Assembly: GCA_030141605.1 (NCBI GenBank)
Contig: JAQGDQ010000110.1
Coordinates: 124,001-188,000 of the forward strand
DNA length: 64,000 nt
From: Tubiluchus corallicola
Taxonomy: Eukaryota; Animalia; Priapulida
Direction: 5' to 3'
This document shows positions 34,523 to 61,400 of the stretch, one piece after another. A program made the translations under genes and the position numbers. The notes beneath the pieces were generated by a model that made no database searches, was not told the DNA's origin, and worked only from the letters and a program-made list of their open reading frames with translations. Numbering within the stretch: the stretch's first letter is position 1; every line of letters starts with the position of its first letter.

Positions 34523-35987
34523 CTAACTGGTGTAGACACATTTAACCAAAATTTCACGAATTCTCATTTTAATGAAATACAACATTGAGAAACATCTAAC
34601 TATATAATTTTTCATAGTTATGTCATGTTTTGGAGTTGTACTTCGTACAGATGTTACACAGCCCTTTTTCTTGAGGCATTTTGATTTTTTATAATAATAC
34701 TTTACACGTTCAATCCAATTCAAATAATGAGAAATTTTGACAGCAACGTTCACATTCTCATGCCTCCATTGAGGGTCATCGTCGTCTTTTGACTCATCTG
34801 GTATTGCAAGAGAGCAATAAACACCAAACACTACACCCGTTCTTTTCAGCACCATTGGACCACCTGAATCACCCTGTAGGTAGACAAAAGTATGATAAAT
34901 GATACAATACCACCTGACGAGTTATTTACGTCATTTGACTTTTGTTAATCATCTACAAAACTACAGAAAAATCTTTTTCTCAGACTCAAAATATAAGTTT
35001 GCTGTACCTGTTATGTGTTTAAAATATTTGTATGCTAACATCCAAAGAATAAAGAGGAAGAAAGTGAAATGCAAATAAGAAAAGGAAGGATAAACATAGA
35101 GGGGGAGAAAGACAGAGAGTGCGAGAATGAAAGGAATTTGACGAAAGTTGAACCATGACTGAAATGTAGCGAGCAGCAATGTAAAAATCAAGACAATCAA
35201 ATCTTGCTGAGTTTTGCTAATCATTTAAAAGTGCTGTAAAAAAGCTTGAATTAGTAAGTAACCCAATGCTTCGGGTTCTCAACTGTAGATTTATAAGATG
35301 ATGTTCAGATCAATTTTGGTCTGTGAAAATGTTGTGGAAGTCTTCTGAAAAAGTTTACTTAAAACGCATTGTGGAACAGTATGCTGGAAAAACATCATAC
35401 ATTAATTGTTCAACTTAAACTGTTGAACTGTTGAAACTGTTGAACTTAAGAGTGGAAAATCAGAAGTAAAAATTACTTTTCAGTAATGCACGAATATTAT
35501 TTTAACTCCACGAATGTTAACTCCAACTGATTCTGAACTTGTTTTGTTTACGAATCGTTTTGAATTTTCGTTCTGGAGTTTAATTTTAGAGGTAGAAAGG
35601 CTAACAATAATTTAATTAATTAAATTAAATTAATAACAAATTATCATCAAACATTTATTTCATTTATCGCAACCATTCAAGGCGTAAGAATTGAGAAACA
35701 AAGTATCAATAGGCCTTAATTTTTAACAAAGGCTTATTTTAGCCATCATTAGATGCAAACCCAGAATATGTATATAATTTTGAATTTGAGATGCTGCTGT
35801 AGTTGAAAACGTTCTACTGATTGTTTTAAAATACGTGAAAAGTTGTGCTTCTTGTTTATACTTACCGAAGTTGTATAGCGCGATCGATGACGTGCGCAGA
35901 TAAAAATTGTTCTATTGTATGGCGGGCACTCACCTTTAAAACTTATTATGAAATCTGCCTTCTGCAGATGTTGAGTTATCGGATAGT
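34523..35987 (-). CDS. Trypsin-like (S1A) serine protease, last two exons (35987-35866 and 34873-34523); 5' exons not found, possibly a truncated pseudogene
   Basis: ..QHLQKADF..CPPYNRTIFICARHRSRYTTS | GDSGGPMV..GVVFGV..VKISHYLNWIE, with the typical phase-0 intron just before GDSGGP. Confidence 0.7.
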
Positions 35988-37000: not shown

Positions 37001-39900
37001 GTGGTGGAAGTTGGCCACGTTTTATCTGAACAAGGAGTTGCTACAGATCCGGCCAAGGTCTCAGCAATTAAGAACGTTTCACCTCCTACGGACATTAAGA
37101 AGTTAAGAACCTTTTTAGGTTTAGCTACGTATTACCATAAATTTGTCAAAAATTTTGCGATAATAGCCGAACCATTACTAATGTTATTAAGAAAAGAAAA
37201 TTCATTTCAATGGACGCATTTACAACAAGAGGCCTTTGACAAACTAAAAACAGTTTTAAACGGAAACCCCAGTTTTGAAATACCCCGAGGTTAATGAAGG
37301 CTATATTGTTCACACTGATAGTTCGAATTTCGGTATAGGTGCTGTTCTTTCCCAGAAGGATTTTAATGGACACCCACGCGTGATTGCGTATATGTCCGAA
37401 ACCCTGAACCGTTCCCAACGTTTATAGCCTACATTTCAAAAGGAAGCGTATGCCATTGTGGCTAGCTTTAGAAAGTTTAAAACATATTTATATAATGCGC
37501 CAAATATAGAAGTCTATACAGACCATGCACCGTTAATTTACTTGTTTACAGCGGCTAGATTAAGGAATCAATTACTGTCTCGATGGGTGGTTGAGCTATT
37601 ACAGTATAACATTAATATTCATTATCAAAAGGGCACAACTAATACAGCTGCTGATGCGTTAAGTCGATTACCAGCGTGTCCAGATTTTGCGGGAGCACTC
37701 CCCATCTCCTTTAGGGATTTTCAACGACAGTTTGTACAATATAATTCGCCTGAAAGATTAGCACAGAAATATAAATATTTAGTTGACCAAAAATCTACTT
37801 CGGAGAGGCGGAAAGGTATTAAAAGTGCAGAGATTATTGCTCAAATTAGCCTACAAATGTTACGTCAAACTGAACAAGAAAATAATTCGAATCAGACAAT
37901 AACCAAAGAGATTTTACCTATAGAGGAAAATGTCTTAGAGGAAAACATTTGGACAGGTGAAGACCCATTGCTAAACAGACTAGAAGTTGAACCAGTTGAA
38001 AATGAAAATACTTCATTTCAAATTCCGTTACCATCACAGGAAACCTCATCAGACCACCCAGCCACTCAATTAGAAGAAAATTCAAAAGAAGATGACCTAG
38101 ACGAATTTGATGCACTACCTTTAGACTTAACAATAGTGCAACAATGGCAGTTATCTGACCCCAAATTAGCACCAATCATTCATGCTTTAACTTCACCTAC
38201 ACAAACCAGCGCCCAAGCAAAACATGCAGAAAATTTTTATATTGACGAACAGGGATTATTGTATAAAGTCCAAAATGATTCTGTCAATCTGGAACAAGAA
38301 AATTTACGTTTAGCTATCCCAGCTAAATTAACAAGTATCCTAATTAGAGGGTTTCATGATGAGTTTGCTGGCCATGCCTCGGTACAAAGAACCTACGACC
38401 GTCTTAAGAAACGATACTATTGGCCCGGCATGTTTGTACAAATTAAGAAACATGTAGACCAGTGTTTGAATTGTCAACACGTCGTTTGCGACCGCATCGT
38501 AAACCTTTAGGTGTCACAGAATTAGCCACTAAACCGTTTGAACATGTCTACCTGGACATATTAATGCTACCACAGACAGAATCTGGTTACAGATACTTAC
38601 TAGTATTAATAGACCAATTAAGCAGTTGGATTGAAGCCTTCCCACTAGTTGATAAATCAGCTAATTCGGTTGCTAATATAATCCTTACGGAATATTTTTC
38701 TCACCACGGGGCAAGTAAGACCTTTTTTAGCGATCAAGGGACTGAGTTCAACAACCAACTTTTAAGAGCCTTATTAAAAGAATTTAGGGTAGTCCACGTT
38801 TTAGGAACTGCCTATCCTTCTAACTCCCAAGGGCAAGTTGAGCGGGCCAATAGAACAATAATTCAACAGTTGTCATATGTTTGTCAACAAAAGTCGAGAG
38901 ATTGGATCGAGTATTTGCCTCATGTCTTGTTTGCCTTGAGAACAATGCCAAATTCAACAGGCTATAGTCCGTTTTTCTTAATATACAACCGACACTGTGA
39001 CTTACCGCTTGATAACATTCTCCAACTCAGATCTAAATATTACGGCTCTGATCCAGTTAGGCTAGATCTAAACCGATTACACGAAGCTTTTCTGCACACC
39101 AGACAGCTCATGCATAAGAATCGCCTAGCTCATAAAAAACGCTATGATAGAACCACGCATACACCCCATTTCAAAGTCGGCGACCCGGTATTTTTACGTA
39201 AAGTCAATTTAGACCCTGCTGAAAGTCATAAATTACAGCGACCTTGGTCTCCATTTTATTTAATTGTCAATAAAATTGATGAATCTCGTTTTAGAATTGT
39301 TCATAATACTACAGGTAAATTCAAAATATTCCACCCGGATCGTTTAAGAAAAGCCAATTTACCTTGTAATCAATGGCTATTACCAACAGGCGTATCGTCA
39401 CATTCAAAATTAGCTGCAAAATCCGCCAGACCAAAATGTAAGTCGACATTGCACTATGTCCCCCCATCAATGTCGGACAATGACTCTAATAGTTTACTTA
39501 ATGAAACACAACCTATCCCAGTTCTGCCACCAAATTCACAATCTGTAAACAAAAATTTATTAGAACCTGACATCATAATTTCTGAATCCCCGCCCCCCCC
39601 CCCCCCAATTTAGACATATACGAAAACGAACCTCAATCTAATATTTCTTCTAGCTCATCAAATTCGACCCTAGACTCCATGCCACATTTAGAATGAATGG
39701 AAGATTCAAATGAAACGCAAAATCTACTTCAAACCGACAAGGAACTTCAAATTGACAGTGAAATTCCCCCAATCATTAATCGCTCAATAAAACATTCATC
39801 AGATGCCGACACGCCTGTTAAGCGTGCTAGAATTAATTTAATTAAATTGCAAAAATCGGGGATTTTAAAAACATTGCGCCATAAATTTTGCAAACAATAA
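37001..39900 (+). pseudogene. Gypsy pol pseudogene (RT C-terminus, RNase H, integrase)
   Basis: GHVLSEQGVATDPAKV, LRTFLGLATYY, HTDSSNFGIGAVL, VYTDHAPL, ADALSR; integrase HHCC (HDEFAGH...CLNCQ), D-D-E (VYLDIL, FSDQGTEF, GQVERANR); frameshifts near 37270, 38480 and 39600 and a stop near 37425. Confidence 0.9.
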
Positions 39901-40449
39901 ATTCCTACGACATTATGATTATATACCACTAACATTACAATTATAATATAAGGTCCGATTTTTGTGTTATAAAGCACTAGGGATATCACTTATATATCAC
40001 CAATATATATATGTATTTATTCTCATATAATTTTATGGACCATGACGTAACAGGCCATTAATAAGGCAAGTATAATTTTGATTTATACTGAAACTGTTTA
40101 GAGTATGGTAATAATCTTCGATTTCCCGGGAACCTTCTTGTTTGTAACGTTTAGACATATCAGACGAGACAGTTATGCATTATCGATGATTTCCATACAA
40201 ATGCTTTTATTAAAACAGTCAATAAGCGTACCATCTTCGGCAACGAACTTATTCAGTAAGTAAAAATAGTTTCCTTACTCCCTCGCCATAAACCTGAAGC
40301 CGTACTAAAAGCTCGAATTTCATGACTTGATTGTTAGACTTTCGTGATTTATGACCAAAGACTTCAAGTCTTAGAATGATTCAGCTTTCTGCGCCTCCAA
40401 ATATACAAGCGGACATAAGACTCTTAATTTAAGTACATGGGATGCTGAC

Positions 40450-43400
40450 TGTTATGTATTTATCTAATTGTGATGTCTGGTGAATAAATTATGTTTATCA
40501 GTAATGGCTGCTTGTGCGTAGTTCACAATAAAATGTGGCGACTCTTGATGGGATAGTTATCGCTGTATGAAGATTTTTAGTGAAAATTTAGATGGCGAAT
40601 GCACAGATAATTGGGTCCGTCAGCGAGTTTAATTCCAGTAAGGAAGATTGGTGTAACTACCAGCAGCGGTTAGAAGCGTGGATGAGAGCGAATAGTATTA
40701 ATGACCAACAGAAGGTAGATGTTTTCTTGTCATTAATTGGTCCGGAAGCGTTTAGCTTAGTGTCCTCTCTTGTAACGCCAGATCCGGTGAATACGAAAAC
40801 TTATGTGGAACTGACAAATAAATTATCGGATTATTATAAACCACGCCGTAATAAGATAGCCGAGAGACTAAGACTCCGTGACAGAAAACAGCGTGAAGGT
40901 GAATCCATTGCGGAATATATTGTAGAGCTACAGAAATGCAGTAAATATTGCGAATTTTCAGCTCAAGAGCTGTCTGACAACTTGCGTGACACTTTTGTGT
41001 GTGGGCTTCGCACAGGATTAATACAAAAGAAATTATTGGAAAGCTCTGATTTAACGTGGAACACAGCTCGGGAGATAGCATTAAATATGGAGGCAGCTAC
41101 ACGAGACACAAGTACACTTTCTGGCAGTGGATATGGTTCATCCGAGGTAAACTACACTGGAAGAGGTAAAAATTGGAGAAAGAAATTGGTAAAACCTAGT
41201 TACCCGATGACTGTAAATAAACCGCATGTTTCAAGTAAATGTGGTCGGTGTTTGGGTGCGCATGAGGCATGGAGATGTCAGTTTAGGAATGCCAAATGTT
41301 ATAAATGTTCAAAAATTGGGCATATCGCAAAGGTATGTAGAAGTGGACGTGGTTATGGACGTGGAAGTGGACGTGGACTACCTGGAAATACCAATAGTGT
41401 TAATCCAGACAGTGATTGTGCTGACGTGGTTCAAATTAGTTCCTTGTATAATCTTGGTACAGCAAAAAGTGCTACTACGAATGAGTACCAAGTGAGTGTC
41501 ATTGTGAACAGGAAGCCAGTTTTGTTTACAGTAGATACTGGAGCTATGGTATCAGTTGTATCAGAAGCTGAGTATCAGGAAAAATTTTCTATTCTGCCTT
41601 TGCAACGCACTAATTTAAAACTTCGTAGTTACTGTGGTAATGAAGTACCGGTGTTAGGTCAAATACATGTTAGTGTGTGCTATGCAGGTCAGCAAGTGAC
41701 CCTTCCACTTGTTGTGGTTAAAGGTGATCGTGTTCCGTTATTGGGACGAAACTGGTTGAAGCATCTTAAGCTAAATTGGTCTGAAATTTTTAACGTATAT
41801 AAGCCTACATGTGGTGCCACAGTTGATAGTGTGATGGAAAAACACAAGTCAGTTTTTCAGTCATGTAGTAAACCGATTGAAAGCTACAAAGCACACATTG
41901 AGCTTAAACAAGGTGCAAGACCTATATTTTGGAGACCACGACCAGTACCCTATGCTCTTAAGGATGCTGTGGATGAGGAGTTAACCCGGTTAGAAAACAA
42001 TGGTATTATAAAGAAAGTGGAAAATAGCAAATGGGCTGCTCCAATAGTGGTTGTCCCCAAAAAGAAAACTGGGAAGGTCAGGATTTGTGGTGATTATAAG
42101 GTCACAGTAAATCAGATGGTGGAAGACGAACCGCATGATTTTCCGACAACAGCTGATATGTTTGCGACCCTATCAGGTGGTAAAATTTTTACCAAGTTGG
42201 ATTTAACAAATGCATATCAACAGCTAGAACTAGACGAAGAGTCTAAAGAATTACTGACTGTGAACACTCATCGAGGCCTTTACCAGTATCAACGTCTTGC
42301 TTTTGGTGTGAAAACTGCGCCAGCAATTTTCCAGAAAATGATGGATAAAATTTTGTGTGGTGTTGAGCATACATGTTGTAAAATAGATGATATTTTAATT
42401 AGTGCACGTGATGACAAGGAGCATGTTAAATTGCTAGATAATGTGCTTACTAGATTAGCTAACCATAATATACATCTAGGCAGAGATAAATGTTATGTAG
42501 GTGTTCAAAGTGTTGAATTTTTAGGTCATATGATTGAGCCAGCTGGAGTTAGACCTACCGAAGAAAAGGTAGAAGCCATTCTTAAAGCTAAAACTCCCAG
42601 AAATGTTTCTGAGCTTAGATCATTCTTAGGTATTGTAAATTACTACTCACATTTCTTGCCTGATTTATCAACTACCTTTGCTCCTTTGTACCAGTTGTTG
42701 CAAAAAGGTGTTCCATGGAAATGGTCATCAGAGTGTGACAGTGCACTAGGTAAAGTTAAACAGTGCTTAACTAGTGATTCATTGTTAGTGCACTATGATT
42801 TAAAGAAGCCACTCACCTTGGCATGTGATGCTTCACCATTTGGTGTGGGTTGTGTCATATCGCACATCATGGAAAATGGCGAAGAACGTCCGATTGCTTA
42901 TGCATCTAGAACCTTGACAGCTGCAGAGAAGGGTTACAGTCAGATTGAAAAGGAGGCACTTGGCATAGTGTATGGTGTTCAGAAGTTTCACAAATATTTG
43001 TATGGGCGGCATTTTACATTGTATACCGATCATAAGCCTTTGACTACCATCTTTGGGCCAAAAACAGCTGTGCCTACTCTTGCTGCGTTAAGACTACAGC
43101 GTTGGTCTTTAATTCTTATGGGCTATGAATATGACGTCCGTTACAGAAAGTCAAGTGAGCATGAAAATGCTGATACATTGTCTAGGTTTCCATTATCAGG
43201 TTGTACTTTAGCAACTGAGTTGGATGTTAATTATTTTTCTTATGTAAATGATTTGCCAGTTACAGCAAAGAGTATCAGTGAAGAATCTCGTAAAGATCCT
43301 ATTTTGTCTAGAGTATGGTATCATGTCATGAACGGTTGGCCGGCTCAGGTAGATCAAAATAGTCCTTTAATGCCTTATTTTCTTAGACGCCATGAGTTGT

Positions 43401-45218
43401 CTAATGACAATGGTTGTCTTCTTTGGGGGTTACGTGTCATTATACCACCCCGTTTCCAGTCTCAACTACTTGACGAATTGCACCGTGAGCATTTTGGAAT
43501 GGTACGTTTGAAAGCTTTAGCTCGTTCTTATTTTTGGTATCCTGGCTTAGATGCTGATATCGAAAATTTAGTAAAAGGCTGTAGTGTATGCCTTAGTGTT
43601 AGAAATAATCCAGTGCGTGCACCAGTAATTCCTTGGAAATTTCCGTCTAAAGTGTGGGAGAGAGTGCACATTGATTTCTTTGAGATTGATGGGAAGCATT
43701 TCCTTATCTTGGTTGATGCCTATTCTAAATGGTTAGAGATACAGTATATGCCATCTACAACTTCTACAAGAACAATCGAAGTACTTGGTACTTGGTTTGC
43801 TTCTTTTGGGCTACCTGTTGAGTTAGTATCTGACAATGGGCCTCAACTGGTATCTGAAGAGTTTGAGAACTTCTTGAGATCAAATGGTGTAAAACATTCT
43901 GTTTCTCCTATTTACCATGCACAGAGTAATGGTGCTGCTGAACGTAATGTTCAAACTGCAAAATTAGCTTTAACTAAATACATGATGGAAGCTAAGAATA
44001 TACCTTACATGACTATTTGTAAAATGCTGAATAACTTTTTACTTACTTATAGGAATACTCCACATAGTACAACTGGACGTAGTCCAGCAGAACTTATGTT
44101 GCAGAGAATGCCTAGAATTAGATTTAGTATGTTAAAGCCAGATTTAAGAGAGGAAGTGGTTAGTAAGCAGGAGAAAACAGTTGATCATGATAAAACTGTT
44201 CGTGAATTCTCTGTAGGTGAGACAGTTAGGGTGAGGAATCACCGTGGAGGTGTGCTTAAGTGGGACATTGGCAAAGTTCTAAAGAGAATTGGTGTTGTTA
44301 GGTACAGAGTTAAGATTGGTTATCAGGTTAAGCATGTACATGTAAATCATATGCTGAAAAGTGGAGAATTCGTTAAGGATGATGATTGTGTAAAATTGGA
44401 TGGGTCTACAGATGATGTAATCGAAGTTCCAGTTAGTCAGCCTGTGGCTGAATCTGAAACATTGCCTGTAAAAGATTCAAGTTCCATTGCTGAATCAGTT
44501 AAAAATTTTGATGATGATTTACCGACTGTAGACAAACCTTCAATTTTTGAAAAAGATCATCCAGTAACGGTATTGCCTAAACCACCTGTAGAACCTGTTA
44601 GACGATCCAGTAGAATCAGGAAGGCTCCTGATAGGTTGATTGAGTCTGTGTGATTTGTTTGCAAATTGATACCTTAATTGAAATAATTTAGTACTGATTT
44701 GGAATTTCTGTATTAGGGCACATACAAATTGGTGTTTGTATTTTCATTGGCTAATTGTCATTATAGCTTATAATAGTTATTCTGATTGAAGATTTCTTTT
44801 GGTATACTATACCTAATTAGAGTTATATTACACGTAATTAGGTCTACTTGTTACTTACGTGTTTTAGTTGTCGCAATTCATTATAGTTGTGTTCAATTAT
44901 TTTGAGAATTCAGTACATATTACTCTGGCTGTTTGATGGGTTTTCCCCAAATTACTTTACTGTGTAAATTTGAATGGTTTGAGAGAGAATCAAACAAGTT
45001 AAATAATGCCTAAAAGTTCACAGTGGTGTATTCATTGTGCATTGAAGTTGTATTGCACATTTCAAAAACCATCTTTTGTTGATTTTCCTAAATGTGTTAA
45101 GTTTATTTGATGCTAGTTTATATCTAGAGGGGAGGATTGTTATGTATTTATCTAATTGTGATGTCTGGTGAATAAATTATGTTTATCAGTAATGGCTGCT
45201 TGTGCGTAGTTCACAATA
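40450..45218 (+). mobile_element. Intact full-length Ty3/gypsy retrotransposon, Mag-like
   Basis: Identical 81-bp LTRs 40450-40530 and 45138-45218; target duplication CTGAC (40445-40449, 45219-45223); PBS TGGCGACTCTTGATGGGA at 40536 resembling the tRNA-Arg(UCU) 3' end; PPT AGAGGGGAGGA 45126-45136. Confidence 0.96.
40592..44653 (+). CDS. Gag-Pol polyprotein (Gag with two zinc knuckles, protease, RT, RNase H, integrase), 1353 aa
   Basis: CGRCLGAHEAWRC and CYKCSKIGHIAKVC knuckles, VDTGA protease, KLDLTNAYQQL and KIDD in RT, CDASPFGVG and TDHKPL RNase H, integrase HIDF / SDNGPQ / AERNVQ; no stops. Confidence 0.96.
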   Translation: MANAQIIGSVSEFNSSKEDWCNYQQRLEAWMRANSINDQQKVDVFLSLIGPEAFSLVSSLVTPDPVNTKTYVELTNKLSDYYKPRRNKIAERLRLRDRKQREGESIAEYIVELQKCSKYCEFSAQELSDNLRDTFVCGLRTGLIQKKLLESSDLTWNTAREIALNMEAATRDTSTLSGSGYGSSEVNYTGRGKNWRKKLVKPSYPMTVNKPHVSSKCGRCLGAHEAWRCQFRNAKCYKCSKIGHIAKVCRSGRGYGRGSGRGLPGNTNSVNPDSDCADVVQISSLYNLGTAKSATTNEYQVSVIVNRKPVLFTVDTGAMVSVVSEAEYQEKFSILPLQRTNLKLRSYCGNEVPVLGQIHVSVCYAGQQVTLPLVVVKGDRVPLLGRNWLKHLKLNWSEIFNVYKPTCGATVDSVMEKHKSVFQSCSKPIESYKAHIELKQGARPIFWRPRPVPYALKDAVDEELTRLENNGIIKKVENSKWAAPIVVVPKKKTGKVRICGDYKVTVNQMVEDEPHDFPTTADMFATLSGGKIFTKLDLTNAYQQLELDEESKELLTVNTHRGLYQYQRLAFGVKTAPAIFQKMMDKILCGVEHTCCKIDDILISARDDKEHVKLLDNVLTRLANHNIHLGRDKCYVGVQSVEFLGHMIEPAGVRPTEEKVEAILKAKTPRNVSELRSFLGIVNYYSHFLPDLSTTFAPLYQLLQKGVPWKWSSECDSALGKVKQCLTSDSLLVHYDLKKPLTLACDASPFGVGCVISHIMENGEERPIAYASRTLTAAEKGYSQIEKEALGIVYGVQKFHKYLYGRHFTLYTDHKPLTTIFGPKTAVPTLAALRLQRWSLILMGYEYDVRYRKSSEHENADTLSRFPLSGCTLATELDVNYFSYVNDLPVTAKSISEESRKDPILSRVWYHVMNGWPAQVDQNSPLMPYFLRRHELSNDNGCLLWGLRVIIPPRFQSQLLDELHREHFGMVRLKALARSYFWYPGLDADIENLVKGCSVCLSVRNNPVRAPVIPWKFPSKVWERVHIDFFEIDGKHFLILVDAYSKWLEIQYMPSTTSTRTIEVLGTWFASFGLPVELVSDNGPQLVSEEFENFLRSNGVKHSVSPIYHAQSNGAAERNVQTAKLALTKYMMEAKNIPYMTICKMLNNFLLTYRNTPHSTTGRSPAELMLQRMPRIRFSMLKPDLREEVVSKQEKTVDHDKTVREFSVGETVRVRNHRGGVLKWDIGKVLKRIGVVRYRVKIGYQVKHVHVNHMLKSGEFVKDDDCVKLDGSTDDVIEVPVSQPVAESETLPVKDSSSIAESVKNFDDDLPTVDKPSIFEKDHPVTVLPKPPVEPVRRSSRIRKAPDRLIESV

Positions 45219-45223
45219 CTGAC

Positions 45224-45766
45224 CTATTAGCAAGTAATTTTAGTCTGGCGAAACTAAAAACATTGCAAACTTCGCCATCGGGAATGACAGATGGAAAACC
45301 ACTTGACTTTTCCCTAGAGGAAAGCCAAAAACTCTTATTAACTCGACAAAAATTTTTGGACCAAACTGATGAATTATTCAAAACTAATCCTGTTGACTTT
45401 TCAAATCATCGTGGTGCATCACTAACAACCTATTTGTTCATAGCAATTATTATTGTATTTATAATAATTTATGTAACTTGTCGTACGAAAATTAAGATGG
45501 CGTGTTGCCCCCGCCTCACAAACCCCAAGACCTCCATTACCAAACCCAAACCATCTCAAGATAGCTCCCGAGATATTAGCTCCAGCCATCCTAACCCTTC
45601 GACGTCGCACCCAAACCCTGTAAAGCGTAACCGGATACCTTCGTATCAAACACCCCCACAATTCCTACCAAAAACAGAACCGATTGTTCGATACACTCCA
45701 ACCAACAACTCCATCGATTTCGTCTATCCTTCTTTACAAACCATACAAGAAGATGAAGCGGCATAA
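45224..45766 (+). pseudogene. C-terminal part of an env-like type I membrane protein of the outer element, split by the nested insertion
   Basis: Removing the nested element gives an in-frame join SAFCASKYTSGHKTLNLSTWDAD-LLASNFSL; then an amphipathic helix (LEESQKLLLTRQKFLDQTDELF), a TM segment YLFIAIIIVFIIIYVTC and a Pro/Ser-rich tail; lies in the usual env position after pol. The env call is inference. Confidence 0.5.
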
Positions 45767-45819
45767 AACCCATACCCATTTCATTTTATCTTATTTTATT
45801 CATTTGTTTTACTATACAG

Positions 45820-46294
45820 TTATAACCAAGACGTTGAGGAGAATCTTTCAAAGTTAGATGACAGCATAGACAAATTTTTGCAGGGACTCAACGACTCCTA
45901 TGAGGTCAATTACAACCTGATCCGTAATACACTTACAACACCTGAAACACCTCAAACCACCTCCGCACCAAACACCTTCGAGAGTGATGACCACTTTCTA
46001 CCATTACAATTTTCCTTTTTACGAAATACGCCTTTAAGTCCAGAAGAAATATACACATTTCTTAAATCGCCAATCCCACCATTCACGGACATTCCAAAGG
46101 ATGTCAGTAAAACAGTGCAGACAGACTTGACCTGTAAACCAAACGATGAAATTGAATTTACTATCTCTAAACTGCTACCTACTGTTTATAACAAACAGAC
46201 ACAAACAGATCAGACATTTTCTCCCGATGTGCTAGTCGCCCTAAAACACCCCCCATTGAAAAATACTTTCATTAACAACCTCGCTCCAATCTAA
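45820..46294 (+). CDS. Accessory ORF A of the outer retroelement (Thr/Pro-rich, no ATG, possibly entered by splicing)
   Basis: Frame is open 45767-46294; strong acceptor-like TTTTATTCATTTGTTTTACTATACAG ends at 45819. Confidence 0.35.
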
Positions 46295-46355
46295 CTTATA
46301 CAAGGTTTGGTCTTACAGTAATCTTTTGACGCTTAAATATCACTTAACTCACAGC

Positions 46356-46544
46356 ATGAATATGCCACCGCCTGCTTCTAACAGCCGCCCTAATTTGCAT
46401 AACGATCGCGCTACAGAAGTTATCTCACGTCACGCGTATGTGATCGTAATCAGCCTAACACTACTTGTCTTCTGTATATTAATAATCGGCATATTATTTG
46501 CCGTTTGTGAAAGAAAATGCGAAATGACTGAACGGGAAAATTAA
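46356..46544 (+). CDS. Accessory ORF B, small single-pass membrane protein (62 aa)
   Basis: ATG 46356; hydrophobic run YVIVISLTLLVFCILIIGILFAVC followed by a charged tail. Confidence 0.35.
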   Translation: MNMPPPASNSRPNLHNDRATEVISRHAYVIVISLTLLVFCILIIGILFAVCERKCEMTEREN

Positions 46545-46637
46545 AAAACTAAAATACTAAATGAATAATTGAATAATGAATGATTGAATTAAAAAACTAA
46601 AATACTAAATGAATAATTGAATAATGAATGATTGAAT
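46541..46637. repeat. 48-bp tandem duplication
   Basis: TTAAAAAACTAAAATACTAAATGAATAATTGAATAATGAATGATTGAA twice. Confidence 0.85.
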
Positions 46638-46959
46638 ACCTTAACCTTTTTTTCTCAAAATCCCCCCTTTCCTAAAAGCTTAAACCTTAAATCTTGCCAG
46701 GTGCTAGGAAGCCACCATAAAACAGCTGACAGCTGTCAATCATCTACCAGGCAGCGACGAGACTGCATCTACATCTGTGATTCTTCAGCATAGAACTTCA
46801 GCACTCATAGAACTTCCGCGTAGTGGTAAATTTATTGCATCTGTGTTGCTTCAGAATTCATAGAACTTCCGTGTAGACTAAAGAAAATTTTGTTATGTGG
46901 TGAAGTACATTGACATTAAAGAAAATCTTGTTCTGTGTTAAAGTACATTAACAGTGCAA

Positions 46960-47310
46960 ATGAAGTTAAATATTCGACTTTTAGTAACTTATAAATATCG
47001 AAAACAACCGTTTCGAAAAACTTATTATTGTGTCAACTACAAACGGAGTCAATTTATTCTACTAGATCTACCGCATACCAAATATTTCAGAAGATATACG
47101 TTAAGTGTGATCAACTTTAAACCTTACGTTGATAAATACTTAACTATGCGGGCAGTCAGACGTTTCAAACAATATAAACTTTACGACTTTCAGAATCAAA
47201 CAACATTGTCTTCTATAAACTGCCATTATTTCATGCGTTGCCAAAATTATTTTGAACACTTAATGGGAGAGCCACATACTTGTGTTGATTCGGATTTCAG
47301 TGCAATTTAA
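46960..47310 (+). CDS. Accessory ORF C, basic 116-aa protein with a Cys/His-rich end, function unknown
   Basis: ATG 46960, Lys/Arg/Tyr-rich, ends CHYFMRCQNYFEHLMGEPHTC; same strand as the other cargo ORFs. Confidence 0.35.
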   Translation: MKLNIRLLVTYKYRKQPFRKTYYCVNYKRSQFILLDLPHTKYFRRYTLSVINFKPYVDKYLTMRAVRRFKQYKLYDFQNQTTLSSINCHYFMRCQNYFEHLMGEPHTCVDSDFSAI

Positions 47311-47368
47311 AACATTCAGACTTCAGTGCAATTTAAAACATTCAGACTTCAATGTAATTAGTTAAGAC

Positions 47369-48235
47369 ATGTCAAGCACCGTCACACGAAGTTGTTTAGT
47401 CTGCTTTGCACCAAGTTCTGCTAGACACTGGTCAATTTACGTGCAGTGCATGCAGATATTTTTTCTACAGACAACAGCACACTCGGAAGGCGCCTCCACA
47501 ACAAGAGTGCGTCGGAGAATGTCGAATTACCCCAGACACCAGACGCTATTGCCAATATTGTAGACTTAATAAATGCATAGCAGTTGGACTACAACCCACG
47601 TCGCCACACTTCGGAAGATCTGCAAGACAGCGCCGAAACTGCCTCAAAGCTCTATTGACCAGCCGTATCAAATCCATTGGTCAAATGGCAAACCAACTAT
47701 TACCAGTCGCAGTACGCATTACGATTCAAAAAAACACAACTTCAGCCAGAATTACAAACATTACCTCTTAATGACCAAATAATTCTGCTTAAATCCGCTA
47801 TACCAAGTATTGTACTATTATGGATAAATACGTTGATTAACTTTGCCTCACTTGCACAGCAGACAGTCCCTCAGCACCAAATCAGCGATTTTGACGAGTT
47901 TACACAACAACTATAAAACTGCACAGGCCATTATGTTAGTTCGACCATCGCAAAATGAACTCGAAATCTTAACAAATATTCCACTGTTTGACTCAAGCTG
48001 CCTCAACCTAGAGAGACCAGATCAAGTAGCTATTTTTCACGCCATATGGATACAGAGATTTAATCACGAGATTGCCATGACATGGCCTTTCAGATTTACC
48101 TCACAAATGGCTGCTCTAAGCAATTTTCAGGCATTATACCAAGCCGTCATTGCATTTGCAACACGTCTCCAGTATTCACAACTGACCCCGGATCAAAACG
48201 CTTACTTTCAACTAAGGGAAGAGAATAATATGTAA
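47369..48235 (+). pseudogene. Intronless nuclear hormone receptor (C4 zinc-finger DBD plus LBD), three frameshifts, inside the retroelement
   Basis: CLVCFAPSSARH-(shift 47429)-GQFTCSACRYFFYR..CVGECRITPDTRRYCQYCRLNKCIAVGL; LBD signature PELQTLPLNDQIILLK (shift near 47730); then (shift near 47915) YKTAQAIMLVRPSQNELEILTNIPLFDSSCLNLERPDQV. Confidence 0.88.
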
Positions 48236-48494
48236 TGTAGAGAATGATTTGTATAATGTAGAGAATGATTTGTATTTTGAACTCATGATTTGTATTTTGA
48301 ACTCATGATATGTGAACACACTTTGAACTCGTGAGCTCATGATATGTGAACACTTTGAACTCATGAGATGTGAACTCTGATGTGTGTTTTAAATATATGT
48401 TTTAAAAATATACTCATACTTTGAACTTTGATGAACTTTGCACCTCGAACTTTGAACTCATGATATGTGTTAAACAAAGTAATTGACGTGAACT
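48231..48494. repeat. Degenerate short tandem repeat array rich in TGAACT (AGTTCA) hexamers
   Basis: Exact TGAACT at 48278, 48298, 48324, 48356, 48371, 48422, 48432, 48453, 48489; recurring TTTGAACTCATGAT unit. Confidence 0.8.
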
Positions 48495-49202
48495 TATGTG
48501 TGCCTTAAACTAGGGGTGCTTAAAGAAAAAAAAATAGTATAGCTATATCTAATAAAATTAATGATGACGATTAAATATATGATGATGAACGTTAGGATGA
48601 TATACTTGGAACCTTGCTAACACAACCTTGTTTTAATATAAACGATGTACCGTGCTATATATATATATATATATAGGATGATGGTGATGGTATATATATA
48701 TATACCATCACCTATTGGAATGACTATCGAATGGTATTCTAAACTGTGTGATTGGTAATGTTGTGACTGTATTTTAAAGAAAAATGTTCGTCATAATGAT
48801 ATTATATATACTCGAACCATGATGTATGTTGCTGAAGCCCTGAATAATGTAATCACCAAAGATAATACTCCAGCATATAAAAGCTTAACCTATATATTCG
48901 CACGTAACCATGCGTATTAGGTGTTGTAAAATGTAACCTCAATATAAAGGGCGCAGCGCGCCTATTTCCTCCATACTTAAAAAGAATGCATTCAGGTTGC
49001 CTAGACATAGAAAAACATATTATAGTTATGAGTAATTTCAAGTAATTAATGCCATGTATTTTAACGGATGTTTATGACAAATATTTAATGCCATGAATTT
49101 TAACGTATGTTTATGATAAATATTAATGGTGTCACGTGTAGTTTAATCTGCCAGCCCCGAGAAAATAAATTCTTTACTAGAAAGAGAGGAGTAAAGAGAA
49201 TC

Positions 49203-49591
49203 TGTAAAATATGTTAAATATCTGATAATTAATGGCCTGATAATTAAATATGTTACACGCCTAAGAAGCCAGACTCCGAACACGGGATTAAGGTGCGGCA
49301 GTCACGTGACTGCCTCTCCACTAGATTCCCAAATACGGAAATGCCCATTCTGGACAGGCTGCGCAGCCAGCCTGGCGCCAGTGCGGAAGCCATGGGCTGG
49401 AGGCGTCTACTAAGAGAGGAGATTAGACTAGATCTCGAGGAGGAAGGTTAGAGACAGATCAGGGGCTTGGCATTGCTATATTCTATACACATATGTATTG
49501 TGATGTTGTGAAATAAACGTGTTAGTCATCAATCCAGGTCTTATAGCTTTGTCATCACCTAAACGCCTATAAACAGCTACCGTCACTTACA
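49203..49591 (+). mobile_element. Probable 3' LTR (389 bp) of the outer retroelement
   Basis: Preceded by purine tract AGAAAGAGAGGAGTAAAGAGAA 49179-49200; TGTAA...TTACA inverted ends; GC-rich core; AATAAA 49512. No matching 5' copy in the window. Confidence 0.65.
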
Positions 49592-52492
49592 TACGCACTA
49601 CCACTATACAAACCAAGAATAGTAATTTTACTCATCCCATATATGAGTAGATTAGTTAAAACTGATTTGCAGCCACTCGAAGTGAGGCACATTATTTTTT
49701 ATTTAAAACGATGTATAAGACCATTTTTTGAAGATTTCTTCACTTTTGCCCCCCCCCCACGCATTTGCGAAGACATTAAAGACTTGCGTAGACTATAAAC
49801 TTTTTAATCAATTCTTCTATGTTGAACTTGTATCGTTACCTGCTTTCTACGCTTATTTTTTCCGCTTTTTCATGAACAATTATGTTTTTCTTTCTAAGTA
49901 ATTCGATTATGTTTTTCTTATCAATTATATCATATCTACTGTTTGAATAAACATTTTTGCATTATATTTCGTTTTAGTAATACTTTACAGTTCATTTGGT
50001 GCTTGAGAACGGATTATTTGCTTTCACATTATTTCTTATGGGAATAAATGGTACTCAACCAAATCGGTCTTCAAGCACTTTTTAGGAACGAATTATGGTT
50101 GAAAATAGAGGTATGACTGTATTGCAGTTTAGCTTGACAGATATCTAGGTGTAACACTTACATAACGAACAACTGATCTTGTAGTCAATAAAGCAACTTT
50201 GATTTCAAAGTTATACTTTTCAGCAATTCAGTTAATCTTACAAAAAAGCAGCGTACTCTGCCAGAAAAAAATGCAAAACCGAATCATGTAAACAGAGGAC
50301 ATCAATGACCAACTGAAGTAACACACAGCCACCATAAAATACAAATTTGCACTTTCCGAAAAGATGTAGAAAGTATACAATTACACACACATGTGGGAAA
50401 ATTACAAACATGTGTGTAATTGTATACGTTCTACTCTTTGTTTGTATGCCCTCTCTCTACTGTGTCTTCACTGTAAGGGGTCAGCTGTCATAAAAGAATA
50501 TCTGGACAATGAATATCAGAAGGCGAAACCCCAAACTATTCAAGTGCTTTTCCTCCTCCTGAGAAAAAGTAAATTAATACACAGCAGGCATAAACGAGTT
50601 ATTAATTATAAATTATTTATTAAACTATGAGAAACAATATTGTTCTAATATTAACACCAGTATGTTTATCATGAGCAGCATGTTGCATAAAATTGCACAT
50701 CATGGGGTCAACAATTATACTCATTTTAGGCTATTTTTCTAATTTCAATAGCTCATTATTGTAGAACTATTCAACTATCAGTTCCTTCGTCACGTAATCG
50801 AGTTCTGGTAGTTGTTTGTACAATTACACCACATTTTATGTGGACCCCCCCCCCCATGACCCTAACAGCAGCTCAGAAAATATGTCACTGTCACAGTGCT
50901 CTAGCAGTGACATCTCTTCCAGTACACTAATGAACTTTTAATGACTTGCACACGCGCTGCATCGTTCAAGCACCTATACAGCGATGTACTATTTAGTATA
51001 TCTCTGGGAGATCATTACCCTAGTAATATTAACAACATCCTATATGTAAAGAAGCTAGCTCAAATGCCAGTTATAGTGTGAATATGATGAATAAGATGAT
51101 ATAATATTAACACCAGTATTTTTATCATGAGCAGCATGTTGCATAAAATTGCACATGATACTAAGTGAGCTTTTGAAAAATTATAGCTCATTGCCAAACA
51201 TTGAAGAAAAATACATAAACCAAGCGAAAGAATTGCTTACAACGATAAACGACATCATTACATAGTTGCCGAGAAATTTAAATTGTAACCGTCCAACTAT
51301 TTCTAATTTCAAACCCTTTATACCAGACTAAACCACAAAAACTTAGTAGGAATGTCAATTTTACTCACAATTATACACTATACATTTTGTACAATTATAC
51401 TACGTTTTTTATAATACATGACTTCTACAGTTAAGACACCATTAGGGTGTTAATGTAGCTGCAAATATGTAGTACACACACGTGTATAACCATTTGCCAA
51501 GGAGGCACAGCTATACAATCCTATACGAAATCCTCTTTACAAGGCCATAATAAAGTCACATAACGAAAAATGCGCAGCCGCAAAAATGAAACAGGCGGCA
51601 CATGTGAACAAGGTTCGCGACATAACAACTTTATTAGACTTGCAACTAGATTTGTCATCAGAAGCTTGAAAAACATATAATTTTAGAATTTGCTGTTAGA
51701 TTTTAATAACGGTTAGTAATCTGGATTTATTATTCTTTGTGTTTGTGTAGTTGCTATGCGTGTGAGGTTTGCTAATATTGTTTAACAGGTCCATACTGAT
51801 TTCACACTCTCAAATTATATTTTTTCAGACTTCTGCTGACGAATTAAGTTGCAAATTCAAAACGTCAAGTATAATAATATTATTATAAGGTCGCAAACTT
51901 TGTTCACGTATGTACCGTATGTTTGATTTTTTGCTGTACATGCCTGTTTCTGAAAGCATTTCATGCCTTTCTTAAATTCCACTCTACAAATAGTCAAATC
52001 AAACAAAGTTGTATCACTTTACTTACTACCAGCTGACTAACCAATTAAGTTCAAAGTAGAAAATTGCATTTATAGGTTTCTCAAGAATCAAATCTATCAA
52101 GGTGGTAATTGAAACGAACTAAAACTTCCTGATCTCGATGGGCATGAAATACACTGTAATAAAAATTATGGAATGATCTGTTAACAATGTAAAAGGAAAC
52201 ACGATGCCTCCAGGCAATGCTGCAACTTCGGTAGAACATGAGGTCTTTTGTATAGCACTTACATAATTGAAACTGCATGCATGACAGGATAACTAACTGA
52301 ATTATGCCCATATATAACCCCCTATCACAGTTTCACTACTTTACAGCTGTAAGGCTTAAATATCAATTCAAAACTGAATTATCATCAATAAAACAATTAT
52401 AATTTAAAAATTGCAGAAGAAAAATCTATTCAGCTACAGTGCCCAAATGTCTTCAGGCTAGCTCTGGAAGCATTTCGTACACAGATGGCTAA

Positions 52493-55400: not shown

Positions 55401-58400
55401 AACCGCTCAACTATTTAACAGAACGCAGCTGATAAAATTCCATTTGAAGGAAATATGGCAAATACATCTATAATTGGCTGAACTTTGTACGAGACTGAAT
55501 GGATTTTCTTAGCCTGTTTAGTAATGCATGTTTAGTAACCAATAAAAATGACGGATAGATTAGTCGTTATAATTGCCACCCACAAACTAATTATTATGCA
55601 CGTTAGCCTCTGTGGAGAAGGTTCCTTTCAACAATCAACAAACAACTTTCTTTAAACAGCAAACAACAATGCAACTCAAACACCTTAGCGTTCCAGCTTT
55701 CCTACTCAATTGTACAAGCCTGTTCTTAAACATTTTCAATACCTCTTGTTAAAATAAGCAACAAACCTGGGCTGCCTTTACAAGATCAACAGAACAGTTA
55801 TTCCAAGCACGCACGTAACTGACTCCTTTACTAGTTTCCTTGTTCAACAACTCACAAGCGTAACCAATTAACCTGAAAAAAAGACATGGTCTACCATAAG
55901 AAATCACTTTGCTTTTTTCATGATTTCACATCATGCTAATAATTATAAGAGTAAAAGGTTAAAGAGAAATCGACATGCCTTTCGATAAGTTCTAAGCAGG
56001 GCCACAAAGAATACACTGTGTGGGCTACATGACCTCGTGTGTACAGTGTTCCCTCGCTACTTCGCGGTTCGTTTATCGCAGACTCGCTGTTTAGCGGATT
56101 TTCAAAAACATTAATGTGAAATATTTATCGCTGTATTTTCGCTGTTTCGCGGGTTTTTGCGGTACTCCGTCTAAAGTATTTTTGCACATGCGTAGTGCAT
56201 ATTGTACAGTAATGTATAGATTTAATGAATTTTGCATAAAAAATCACAAACTGTATAAAAATATATTAAAAATGTTAATTCTAACATTAAAAGAATATTA
56301 TAAATCATAAAAATTACCATTTACAGTAAATAGTGTATTTATTCGGCGGATGAATACACACCAAAAACGAAATGTAGTACTTGCGCCCACTTGAGATGCG
56401 GGAAAGGGTTATGTATAAGAGTGTGGGGAGGGTTTATAAAGACTTAAAATAATGCATAACTACTAAAATAAGTATAGTGTCCCTACTTTGCGGAAATTCA
56501 CTTATTTGGAACGGGAACACCCAAGATAATTGAGGGAACACTGTATGTGCTTTTTTAAATCATATTACACACAAACATAAATTACAAATACAACAACAGT
56601 GTCGGTATTCCAATATTTATATATCTTGCACCAACCTTTTTGCCCGATGAGCAAAAGCAGGAGAAAAGCGACTTCCTTTCTGAAATTGAAAATGTTGTTC
56701 ACCGAGCTGCGAAAGATATGCTACAGACATTTTCAGCTGCTTGCCACTACGAGCTGCAGTAAAACACTTGACCAAATGTCTGTCAAAAAATTAAACCGGT
56801 GTGACAAAGTATAACAAAGAAGTATAACATAGACAACAGACAAGCTTATTTTGGTTCGATTTTAAAACTAGTGTTTTGTTGTAATAAACTTAAGATGAAA
56901 ACTACCTCAAGTGTCAATATAATATCACAATAGAATTTACATTATTGAGTTAAACTTTATTGAGATGACTTTCATCTTTGCTGAAACAAATAAATATTTA
57001 CACAGGATCAGAAAGTTTCAATAACAAGTTGTCTAAGCATGTAAGGCTTCTACGAGAAAGAGTTACGAATAAAACTTCACAAACTGATGAAGTAATGAAC
57101 TAGAAAGAAAAGTCTGTCTTTCACTTTTCTTCTTTATAGTTTTTGAAGTCACCCTTTTACAGTTCCAGTTTTTCTGCATCGGCCACACTATACTTCTTAT
57201 TAGCAGTGGCTGAAGCTGAGTCAGTTGCTACTACATCAGCAGACTGACACAGTAAATCAACTAGCTTGACTGACGCTGAATCAGTTGCTACTGCATCAGC
57301 TGACTCACACAGTAAATCAACTAGCTTGACAGAAGCTGAATCAGTTGCTACTGCATCAGCTGACTCACACAGTAAATCAATTTTAGTGACAGAAGTTGAC
57401 TGACTTTTCAGCAGTGTTGGCTTAAAGAATAAATTAGCTAAGTCAGCTAAAGCTACGAATTTTTGTTAATGAAATAAATGATAAATTGTTAGTTAACTGT
57501 TACATTGTGGAGACAAATTTTTTTAAATAATTTGTGTTGCTTATACACAGAAAAAAATCTGATGTACAAATTTAAATAATGCATTAGAGATCATTTTTTA
57601 TTATTATAAAAAAGCAATAGATTTATTGCAAATATAATTTAAATCTAACTCGTGGCGAAGCTTATCTTGATTACTGACAAATCAACACCAAAGCACCAAA
57701 ATAATCCCATACATATTGTCTACTCGTGTATTTAATTTTGAATTGACCAGCTTTCTCGTTCAAAAACTTCTAAAGTTTAGTATCTCTGTCAGCACACGCA
57801 CAATGTGACTGCAAATCCGTGGCTCTGGCCTCTAATTATTAGTTATTATTTTATTTCATACAGATCTCTAATGAAAATTGCATAAAAGCCTTGTATCATA
57901 TTTATTATATGATATATCACCTGGTATAATACTTATTGCATGATATATCACCTGGTACGATATTTACTACATGATATCCCATCTGGTATGTTTTCATATG
58001 ATATATTATCCTTTACAGAGAGACTCGATGACAATTCTGATGTATAATTCTTGATTGTGAAACACGTGTTAAAACACCCGAAACATTTCCTGTTTTTCTT
58101 ACAATTTTCAGTCACGCAAACACAAGCATGCTTCCCAGGCTAGTATATACAATGGCAATTAAGCTCTTGCAACTATATAATTTTTTGTAAACAATTTAAT
58201 GCCACTAATTCTCATCCAGAAAATGACTTCACAACTACTAAAATTTTTTTTAGCAAAACCAACTAAGTAGAATAAAGATGCACCTCGCACTTTGCAACAT
58301 TAACACTGTATTTTCGCCCTCATATGTACAAGCTGGAACAACTTTAGTGTACAGATCAGGCAACGAACTGGCTCTGGAGTAACCGTGTCCGCCGCAGCTC

Positions 58401-61400
58401 ATGCGACACTGTTCTACTGCTGATGAAGCAACAGCCGTACACGTTGCCTTTAAGCTGCACGAAACACCATGTAGCTGGAATAAGATGCATAAATGTGCAT
58501 TAATAGACAAAATTATAAAAGTATAGGCTACAGGTAATAAACTAACATGACTTAGCTCCTGCAGATAAGGTAGAGGTGGACAAAGCTCCATCACTTCTAC
58601 TGAAGCCATTGCAAATACAACTGACAAGTGTAAGCAAATTTACTGAAAAGCAAGTATTGGTGAAACATTGAAAGGTGAATAAAATTTGGTTGCACTGGCA
58701 TTTTGATCACAAACGAAACACTAGCAAAAACGACTTAGTTAAGTGTTAGTTAAGACACTAAAACATCAGCACGCTTTCCTACTGTTCAACCACTGTGGTT
58801 AACCTGTTCCAAGCAGCTTAATCAAATGTACCTATAATATTTGCTTGCAAAGATTAAAAACCTAAACTGCTTAAAAGTTAAATGTATTTTTGCTATTAAC
58901 ATTCTATAAAAAAATGTCCTACACACACCGAAAACGGTACAAGAACTTCAAGCAAAAATGAGTGAAATTACAAGTTATCATGGTGACGTGGTCACTCAGC
59001 TTCACATGAATCACTTTCCAGACTGGCCAGTAAGAGTCATTGTTACATTATGTCACCATCAAAATGCTAGTGTGAGCCAAACATTTGTTCAACTAGAGCA
59101 TAATTTGCAACAGCATCTTAAAAAAACACACGACCTAACAGTGTTAGAAAAGCTTTTTGGCAAACTTACCTCAGGCAAAAGATCAAAATCTCCATCCTCA
59201 ATCTTTTTCGCCATAGAGAAGTACATTTTGACCATGCGTTCTCCAGCAAAGTGGAATGCATAAGCCGCTGCCAGAATTGGAAAAAGCTTGTACTGCTGAG
59301 TCACAAAGTCAATGACTTGTGGTTCTACACCACTACAAATGGATATGAATAACGTTCAAACAAAAACACTTATTTATTTATTAGTTATATATTGCCGAAT
59401 ATCATTAATTCTAAATTAATGTTTATTATAATTATCGACCTATAAGTTCACAGTCTGAACTTTATAAAAAACAACCAAAGCAGCTACCAAAATAAGTGGT
59501 GCGCGGTACACTGGTATGTCAAAATATCACTGACTACTTATAAACAAATACTTTTTTCTGATAGTCATTAATGCAAACAGATGCTACATCTATCAGTACG
59601 TTGCTTAGGAGTAAATCACAGTTCAGTGATCTATAACTGATTGCACACATTACTTTTTTGGTGTCCGTGACTTAGCTGCTGCTTTAATTTTGTTCAATTA
59701 AACATTTTACTAACCAATATTATTGTGATGCTGCTATCTACAAACCAAAAAAATAAAATTCTTGTCATTATAATCAACAGTTATATTTATAAGGAGAAAG
59801 GCATTAAAAACTATGAATCACTCAGGATTCGAACTAAGAACCCTGTAATATCAAGCCATTTGTTCTGCCCATTTGAACTTTCATCCAGGTCTGAATTCTC
59901 ATACTAATCAGCACACAATCAGTTACAGCAACATAACAGCATACCAAATATACAAAGATAGTGGACTAAAATTTAAAAGATGGTAAACACAAGCTTACTG
60001 TGGCTCAATCTCGGACTGTCGTCGCACTGCACTGTAGCGAGTAGCGATGGTCACAGCATGTCCCAAGTAGCGTCCTGTATCGTCCACTATCATAGCCCTA
60101 ATCAGCACCATTGTCCCATAAGCTAGTTTGCTGCTAGGGGGCTTTATGTAGGTGCCATCTTTTAGAACCTGAAAAGTTAGATAGCTTTGCTTATACATAA
60201 TTGAAATTGTGCAAGCTGTCAGTATGTAGCACTTAATGAAGACATTGTACATTATAATGGTGGATATGGCAGGATTAAATCTTATTATAAGGATAATCCC
60301 TGTGATGAGACACCGAACCAGTAGAGGTGTCTTAGCCATATTTAAGTATATATCTTAGTTTAAGAATAGCACAACACAGAAGCAATATATCAGCTAAAAC
60401 CACCTAAAAGGAAAAGTCAACCAACCATTTACTGATGAGGCCTAGTGCCGTTTAGCTTTAGTTAGCAATCAAATGTGGTGACATGCACCACTCAATTATT
60501 TGCGTACCCTCAAGATGAAAGTTACAATGGTGCACAACGAAACGAAAGCAAAAAATGGTAAAGTAGTAAACAGTAAAGCAAGGGTGCAGCGATAAGGGAG
60601 CGATATGCACATAAGACAAAAAAGGCAAGTGAGTAAAGCAGGGTTGAATAACATGCAGCACAGAATGACAGAGCAGAACATGGCGGAGCAGACAATGCGT
60701 CCTGTAGCAAAACAAATGGAACAAAAGATAACAAAATAAAATATAAAAAGGGATGAATAACGTGCAGCACAGAATGACAGAGAAGAGCATGGTGGAGCAG
60801 ACAATGCGTCCTGTAGCAAAACAAATGGGACAAAAGATAACAAAATAAAATATAAAAAGGGTTGAATAACGTTCAGCACAGAATGACAGAGCAGAGCATG
60901 GCTGAGCAGACAATGTGTTCTGTAGCAAAACACAAAATAAGCCATTTTAGTATCTAACAAAATAAATTATAAAAACAAAATAAAGTACCAGAAGCTAACA
61001 TAGCGTAAAAGCAAACCATTGCCACATAAAATATTTTTAAGCAGACAAGAACAAAAACAATAAAACAAAGATAGCAACTGACTGAAAAAAGAAAAAATGC
61101 CCCTTCATACATTCTCACTTTCTCCTCGTCACTGAAAAAGAACTTTTTCAAAGTTCGAAAATAATATCCAAAAACAAGTTTCAATGTTTATAGTGAAAAA
61201 TTTATAGAAACATGTGCCATGCACATGAAATTAAACAGAGCTAGGTAGTTATGGTCACTATAACAATTTATTACAATTGGCGACATTCGTAATTTATTAC
61301 AATTTACCTGTGCGTTCTTCATCAGCATCCCTTCACGAGGTATGCGTACGTAATTAAGTTTCAAGTAACCATTATCCACTGTTTCAAAACCCATTTTAGG

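Follow-up and report, generated by a model that had tools for sequence, protein, structure and literature searches.

The 64-kb stretch of DNA analysed here (the window) contains, among the remains of a Ty3/gypsy-type LTR element, an intronless gene that is confirmed to encode a nuclear receptor: it has two C4 zinc fingers and, behind them, a ligand-binding domain (LBD) that has diverged strongly. We consider it highly probable that this receptor is element-borne and selected, whatever its target might be, and would give about an even chance to the more specific proposal that it is an element-encoded transcription factor, long kept by the element and acting on the element's own sequence. Taken to its full extent, this would amount to a gypsy family with its own receptor circuit, in which a rewired P-box reads an array within the element and switches the element on or off. 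That would be the first such retrotransposon, a scenario we hold tentatively, as somewhat short of an even chance.

The receptor ORF, from its ATG at 47369 to the end of its stop at 48235, comprises about 288 codons in four frame pieces, in agreement with the compact intronless receptor described in an earlier note on this DNA. The zinc-finger piece, second of the four, matches Pfam zf-C4 with E 5.8e-11 (43.1 bits, cut-off 21.1), and against solved structures it finds 82 sequences at E up to 1, led by the DNA-binding domains (DBDs) of VDR and PPAR-gamma. The two C4 fingers, with nine cysteines in canonical spacing, span the first break of the frame; they are preceded by a 7-residue N-terminus and followed by an FGR-type C-terminal extension behind the second finger, a short hinge and a compact LBD. 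The D-box has three residues, and the P-box of this copy reads C-S-A-C-R-Y in place of the canonical C-E-G-C-K-G. Pfam detects the LBD only faintly (E 0.02, 14.8 bits, below the cut-off of 23.5), and the last piece of it has no match in Pfam, PDB, Atlas or Foldseek and an uninformative single-sequence fold model (pLDDT 46). A profile built from 18 fetched LBDs, with the part behind the DBD as query and X at the break, gave 22.3 bits, a score reached by 0 of 1000 shuffles (949 scored, best 11.1); for the last piece by itself the score was 12.4 bits (best shuffle 6.8), and hhalign gave a probability of 85 over 126 columns. The alignment is colinear from helix 3, through the L-x-x-x-D-Q-x-x-L-L motif of the LBD signature, to a short helix 12, where the activation motif is without the acidic residue usual in ligand-activated receptors.

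Features of the receptor-carrying element and of the gypsy nested in it (window coordinates)
Feature	Position	Strand	Basis or remark
Outer element pol, 5'-truncated: RT end, RNase H, acidic linker, integrase	37010..39613	+	Pfam, tblastn
Decayed region behind pol	39614..40449	+	may hold remains of the membrane-protein ORF
Nested younger intact gypsy, separate from the receptor element	40450..45218	+	LTRs, target-site duplication
Membrane-protein ORF, 3' part, cut by the nested gypsy	45224..45766	+	hydropathy 2.64
Accessory ORF, 175 codons, no assigned family	45767..46294	+	mostly silent differences between copies
Small ORF, 62 aa, one transmembrane helix	46356..46544	+	hydropathy 3.26
116-codon ORF directly 5' of the receptor	46960..47310	+	present in other copies
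Intronless nuclear receptor	47369..48235	+	four frame pieces, zf-C4 match, LBD profile match
Nine AGTTCA half-sites, one orientation, in degenerate tandem repeats	48278..48494	-	hexamer count
Polypurine tract	49179..49200	+	21/22 purines
3' LTR, 389 bp	49203..49591	+	TGTAA...TTACA ends, AATAAA at 49512, contig-depth step

Pol, ORFs, receptor, polypurine tract and LTR all lie on one strand. The outer pol has the Ty3/gypsy order of RT, RNase H and integrase, with Pfam matches to RT_RNaseH (E 1e-12), Integrase_H2C2 (E 1e-17) and rve (E 3e-11), the integrase comprising an H2C2 zinc finger and the core. Matches of six gypsy pols in tblastn begin at 37001-37013, and no gag, protease, core RT or 5' LTR of the outer element was found within the window; the nearest pol among the relatives listed is 33% identical. 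A long acidic linker of about 150 residues (37690-38140) separates RNase H from integrase. The decayed region behind pol gave no Pfam match in any of the six frames, X standing for stops. One minus-strand frame there (39801-40448), with fewer stops than most, is protein-like, also without a Pfam match, and is perhaps an inverted or inserted fragment. The nested gypsy has identical and very short LTRs of 81 bp, a 5-bp target-site duplication and a single gag-pol ORF of 1353 aa; we rejected it as carrier of the receptor, which lies outside its LTRs and differs from it in base make-up.

The membrane-protein ORF that this insertion cuts is env-like in position and has one transmembrane helix and a long Pro/Ser-rich tail; it has no Pfam or PDB match, and Atlas gave a lead (0.75) to a viral glycoprotein C-terminus. 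The position stated by the earlier note, on the element strand between pol and env-like ORFs on one side and polypurine tract and 3' LTR on the other, is upheld, with the env label a putative one. Pfam matches of the 62-aa ORF are all sub-threshold, and the 116-codon ORF, with no Pfam match, is doubtful as a protein-coding gene. Three AGAACT hexamers in short repeats at 46792-46867, about 500 bp 5' of the receptor, could be part of an internal promoter. From the receptor stop to the polypurine tract and LTR there are about 940-970 bp of repeat-rich sequence. The LTR follows the polypurine tract and has TG...CA ends; with no 5' LTR or other partner within the window, it was called from its own features. 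Within it, a CACGTG E-box forms the centre of a perfect 18-bp palindrome (49297-49314), and the LTR is followed by a very high-copy short repeat (49800-50150; summed depth in X1, one of the sequencing runs considered below, ~1000x single-copy).

The receptor frame is broken near 47,440, 47,730 and 47,905. All three breaks lie inside X1 contigs identical to the window (47290-47546, 47522-47798 and 47775-48220), and assembly error was ruled out as their cause because contigs run across them without a difference. Since X1 is possibly the source of the assembly itself, independent support is confined to the third break, which is also spanned by a contig of X3, a run on a different sample in a different study, that matches 47723-48013. 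Contigs of other copies have, across each break, the length differences that an unbroken frame would give, two of them right at the second break, so the breaks look like decay of the copy in the window after its insertion. In one X4 contig that spans the second break, the net length difference is zero, so at least one other copy may be broken too. The earlier note had the three frameshifts matching the decay of the outer pol; as the 0.87 kb of receptor have three frameshifts and the 2.6 kb of pol two, plus a stop, decay is similar in kind without being an exact match.

Further copies were found in independent contigs. The receptor stretch occurs in 4 of the 6 listed runs, from two studies, none of them listed as an RNA run. 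On 47290-49230, X1 has 61 contigs, of which 15 are at least 99% alike, 7 are at 95-99%, 17 at 90-95% and 22 below 90%, so that 39 of 61 are less than 95% alike; the 14 contigs of X3 divide into 4, 2, 1 and 7 in the same classes (8 of 14 below 95%). X5 and X6, other samples under the same species label, have no contigs on this interval, an absence that can be false. Copies that are 80-95% alike, in contigs from both studies, tile the way from the upstream ORFs into the receptor: the chain runs through 45855-46201, 46174-46683 with a joint on to 46946, and 46853-47292, and then through 46924-47541, 47435-47857, 47769-47915 and 47899-48226. Because these diverged contigs overlap, the same upstream ORFs precede the receptor in other copies as well. 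Summed contig depth, which is not a copy number, comes down to the level of the window's own receptor copy at about 48.7-49.05 kb, recovers before the polypurine tract and jumps at 49203, remaining high until about 49600. This is the profile that a pre-LTR region and an LTR common to the copies would give.

One might ask whether what is multiplied here is a unit separate from the pol-bearing element, either a non-autonomous LTR derivative or some other mobile or duplicated block, which we regard as improbable. None of the contigs from other copies links the receptor to either the polypurine tract or pol, which was outside the contig placement; with the 5' LTR missing as well, the two ends of the element are not seen together, and the 39.6-40.4 kb segment between pol and the ORFs has no Pfam match. 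A single contig, found in X1 and X2, joins the LTR to the 45.2-kb region (49481 to 45215, with a side of 42 letters), which would fit a derivative without gag-pol and weakly hints at a deleted derivative. However, the target-site duplication of the nested gypsy shows that 40449 and 45224 were once adjacent, pol, ORFs and receptor have strand, C-over-G skew and silent-site make-up in common, and any derivative would itself have come from an element that carried the receptor.

For selection between copies, 40 of 187 difference rows were used, 39 of them in the receptor, each counted as a single-letter change. Among these 39, 24 are silent, where the spectrum of observed changes would predict 27.7% (p 1e-5), and 23 fall at third positions; in 48013-48112 alone, 12 of 19 differences are silent, with a rough pN/pS of 0.13 and silent sites near saturation. 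As 30 of the 39 rows involve one X3 contig, they represent few lineages and not 39 events. Three further receptor rows comprise one silent and two replacing differences. Upstream, 14 of the 18 listed differences in the membrane-protein ORF and the 175-codon ORF are silent, and 2 of 6 in the 116-codon ORF. Purifying selection on the receptor between copies is supported by these counts, and the 175-codon ORF, judged from its differences, is under purifying selection between copies as well. The base composition of the receptor at its 114 four-fold sites (A 0.45, C 0.24, G 0.10, T 0.22) agrees with that of the outer pol and ORFs (p 0.28) and differs from those of three pooled host exons (p 0.001) and the nested gypsy (p 4e-8). 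One of the host exons (7tm) is nearly as close to the receptor as pol is, so the host sample is thin.

Lineage-specific expansions of nuclear receptors are common among animals, and the gene could in principle be a passenger, derived from retrocopies or from fast-evolving receptors without introns that form a family in the host, with the silent excess coming from host paralogs and possibly with a close parent gene in the host genome. We think this very improbable, as other copies have the element's upstream flank and ORFs in common, the upstream ORFs show an equal silent bias and the base make-up of the receptor is unlike that of host exons. Nor does the gene carry the traits of a processed retrocopy: there is no poly(A) tail, with no run nearer than 290 bp (the nearest, A9, at 48526), and no target-site duplication of its own, with no flanking repeat >10 bp. 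The earlier note had named such a tail or duplication, a single-copy receptor or a near-identical retrocopy as findings that would speak against cargo, and had proposed a comparison of selection between copies. The receptor proved to be multi-copy together with element flanks, and the silent excess is what long-kept cargo would give; with element-like silent sites in addition, that claim of the note is supported. Its word 'domesticated' applies in the sense of being kept by the element, and not by the host.

The receptor is far from every known receptor sampled, with at most 41% identity in the DBD (41 receptors) and at most 18% in the LBD. Against 1.84 billion representatives, 236 matches reach E 0.001, and the best 150 of these include no relative above about 54% identity, in line with the earlier argument from strong divergence with motif retention against a recent retrocopy. 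Scored by single domains, it comes closest to a long mollusc/nemertean NR1D-like group, PPAR, HR3 and VDR, which makes an NR1 origin likely. In DBD and DBD+LBD trees, with NR2-NR6 barely sampled, the receptor sits on a long branch in no supported grouping, so that the NR1 resemblance pointed out before applies to best matches, and the phylogeny that had been suggested gave the long branch without a subfamily placement. Among longer proteins, a word-based search with the DBD piece yielded 98 candidates, none of which scored. In IMG/VR, the integrase was found in 0 of 4 stretches and the DBD profile in 0 of 143, and two loci found by a scan with the DBD piece were discarded as off-frame chance matches. 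In a metagenome scan, the best 80 of 304 receptor loci are all canonical-type or unrelated receptors, with no pol, LBD-piece or accessory-ORF match at E 0.05.

Behind the gene, beginning 43 bp past the receptor stop, nine TGAACT hexamers (AGTTCA on the other strand) are found in 217 bp, in pairs with 3-, 4- and 5-base spacers. This array, together with the changed P-box, is newly seen here. The next densest 300-bp stretch of the 64 kb has three AGTTCA, and window-wide the hexamer is at chance level (53 vs 53.4 expected). TGAACT is the commonest hexamer of the array (nine occurrences, the next having seven), present both within and outside two tandem units; the LTR, outside which the array lies, contains none. 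In PMC3908500, AGTTCA is given as a VDR half-site, and half-site choice is described as shifting with P-box changes. Because tandem repeats multiply any hexamer and the array was noticed post hoc, we take it as a lead only, a candidate target of the element's receptor. A P-box without glutamate need not read AGTTCA, which counts against binding of the array.

Let us assume that the element is nevertheless the target. The element would then have captured a spliced NR1-type host mRNA once, long ago, perhaps by template switching, and the captured gene would have been trimmed to a DBD and a compact LBD. We suspect that a subgenomic RNA with its end in the 3' LTR would serve for expression of the receptor, which would be maintained as an aid to element replication. 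More speculatively, it might bind the AGTTCA-type array behind its gene and set element transcription without a classical hormone switch; it might be a ligand-independent regulator, a repressor or a competitor of host receptors, ligand-independent action being suggested by the missing acidic residue in the helix-12 motif. Since gene and candidate sites are side by side, the mechanism is directly testable.

An element-borne and selected receptor could instead act on host genes, competing with or repressing host NR1 signalling in the manner of v-ErbA, perhaps in germ line, development or immunity; host receptors would then read the array, or it would have arisen as a by-product. The copies, the selection and the base make-up would be explained equally well, a DBD kept with its FGR extension next to a helix 12 missing its acidic residue would be in keeping with such a role, and the rv-cyclin of WDSV also acts on host transcription (PMC3185748). 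We nonetheless regard it as rather unlikely, though a serious candidate: from its changed P-box the receptor is predicted to use other sites than host NR1 receptors do, so that direct competition is less plausible, and the half-site array adjoins the gene. Our preferred reading thus remains a receptor that acts on its own element.

A few other features of the window may be recorded. A long Ser-rich exon at 2950-4290, ending in YLVTTV, has no database match; we take it to resemble the last exon of APC. Host exons include a galactosyltransferase (7079-7723), a trypsin-like protease (34523-34921, minus strand) and an intronless rhodopsin-family GPCR (62080-62940, minus strand), and a piggyBac-type transposase fragment lies at 13170-13934 (DDE_Tnp_1_7, E 4e-16). 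There are a MITE-like inverted repeat at 32887-33614 (45 bp arms, 638 bp apart), another at 12347-29646 (67 bp arms, 17 kb apart), and tandem repeats at 57157-57465 (60 bp unit, open on the minus strand and Thr/Ser-rich there) and 60640-60966 (109 bp unit). No tRNA was found in the 64-kb window.

Nuclear receptors are animal-specific, cellular, intron-rich regulators. Among them, the best DBD matches of the present receptor lie in NR1 (VDR, PPAR, HR3/ROR, E75 and the mollusc/nemertean NR1D-like group); the FGR extension is as in ROR, E75 and PPAR, the three-residue D-box as in PPAR and the 12-residue linker between the fingers as in the mollusc group. Unlike NR1 members, it has C-S-A-C-R-Y at the P-box position, no A/B region and a short hinge. 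The v-erbA of avian erythroblastosis virus, transduced recently, near-identical to its cellular source and joined to gag in a defective virus, is the one retroviral nuclear receptor case known to us. The likeness consists of a nuclear receptor within a retroelement and the loss of the helix-12 activation motif. In contrast to v-erbA, with its gag fusion and close cellular identity, the receptor here is a stand-alone ORF with its own ATG, diverged (DBD at most 41% identical), multi-copy and under selection. Such a cargo class would surprise a specialist. It might serve as a natural experiment that shows how a receptor, once free of host duties, becomes smaller and alters its DNA specificity, and might provide a means for diverged intronless receptors to multiply within animal genomes or to pass from one to another.

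Captured extra ORFs in LTR retrotransposons are already known, and a nuclear receptor as cargo is new in the literature searched, in which no retrotransposon-encoded nuclear receptor is described (subscription journals and Repbase were outside the search); the earlier note, which knew of no described gypsy family that stably encodes one, agrees with this. PMC13524379, which surveys 1512 Ty3/gypsy elements of invertebrates that carry env, does not contain 'nuclear' in its main text, nor receptor, zf-C4, hormone or accessory in seven of its supplements. With these elements the present one has in common a gypsy pol followed by a transmembrane ORF, here env-like by position only. Closer in cargo are bdelloid rotifer LTR retrotransposons, whose ORF3 encodes a GDSL esterase or DEDDy exonuclease (PMC5408684), and planarian Burro, with extra BIR, BCL2-like and MATH ORFs (PMC6431247), which are likewise of gypsy type, with host-like ORFs behind pol and family-wide retention. 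Here, in contrast, the cargo is a sequence-specific nuclear receptor accompanied by several further small ORFs, and its copies show an excess of silent change, whereas ORF3 variation within a rotifer genome is reported as mostly neutral. The WDSV rv-cyclin, which according to PMC3185748 is <20% identical to host cyclins and inhibits the viral promoter, is in our view alike in being an old, highly diverged, host-derived regulator among several accessory ORFs. WDSV is a vertebrate retrovirus, and its cyclin has no DNA-binding domain of its own, whereas here an invertebrate-type gypsy pol goes with a putative DNA-binding receptor; given a receptor kept by the family, invertebrate gypsy elements could reach the regulatory complexity of complex retroviruses.
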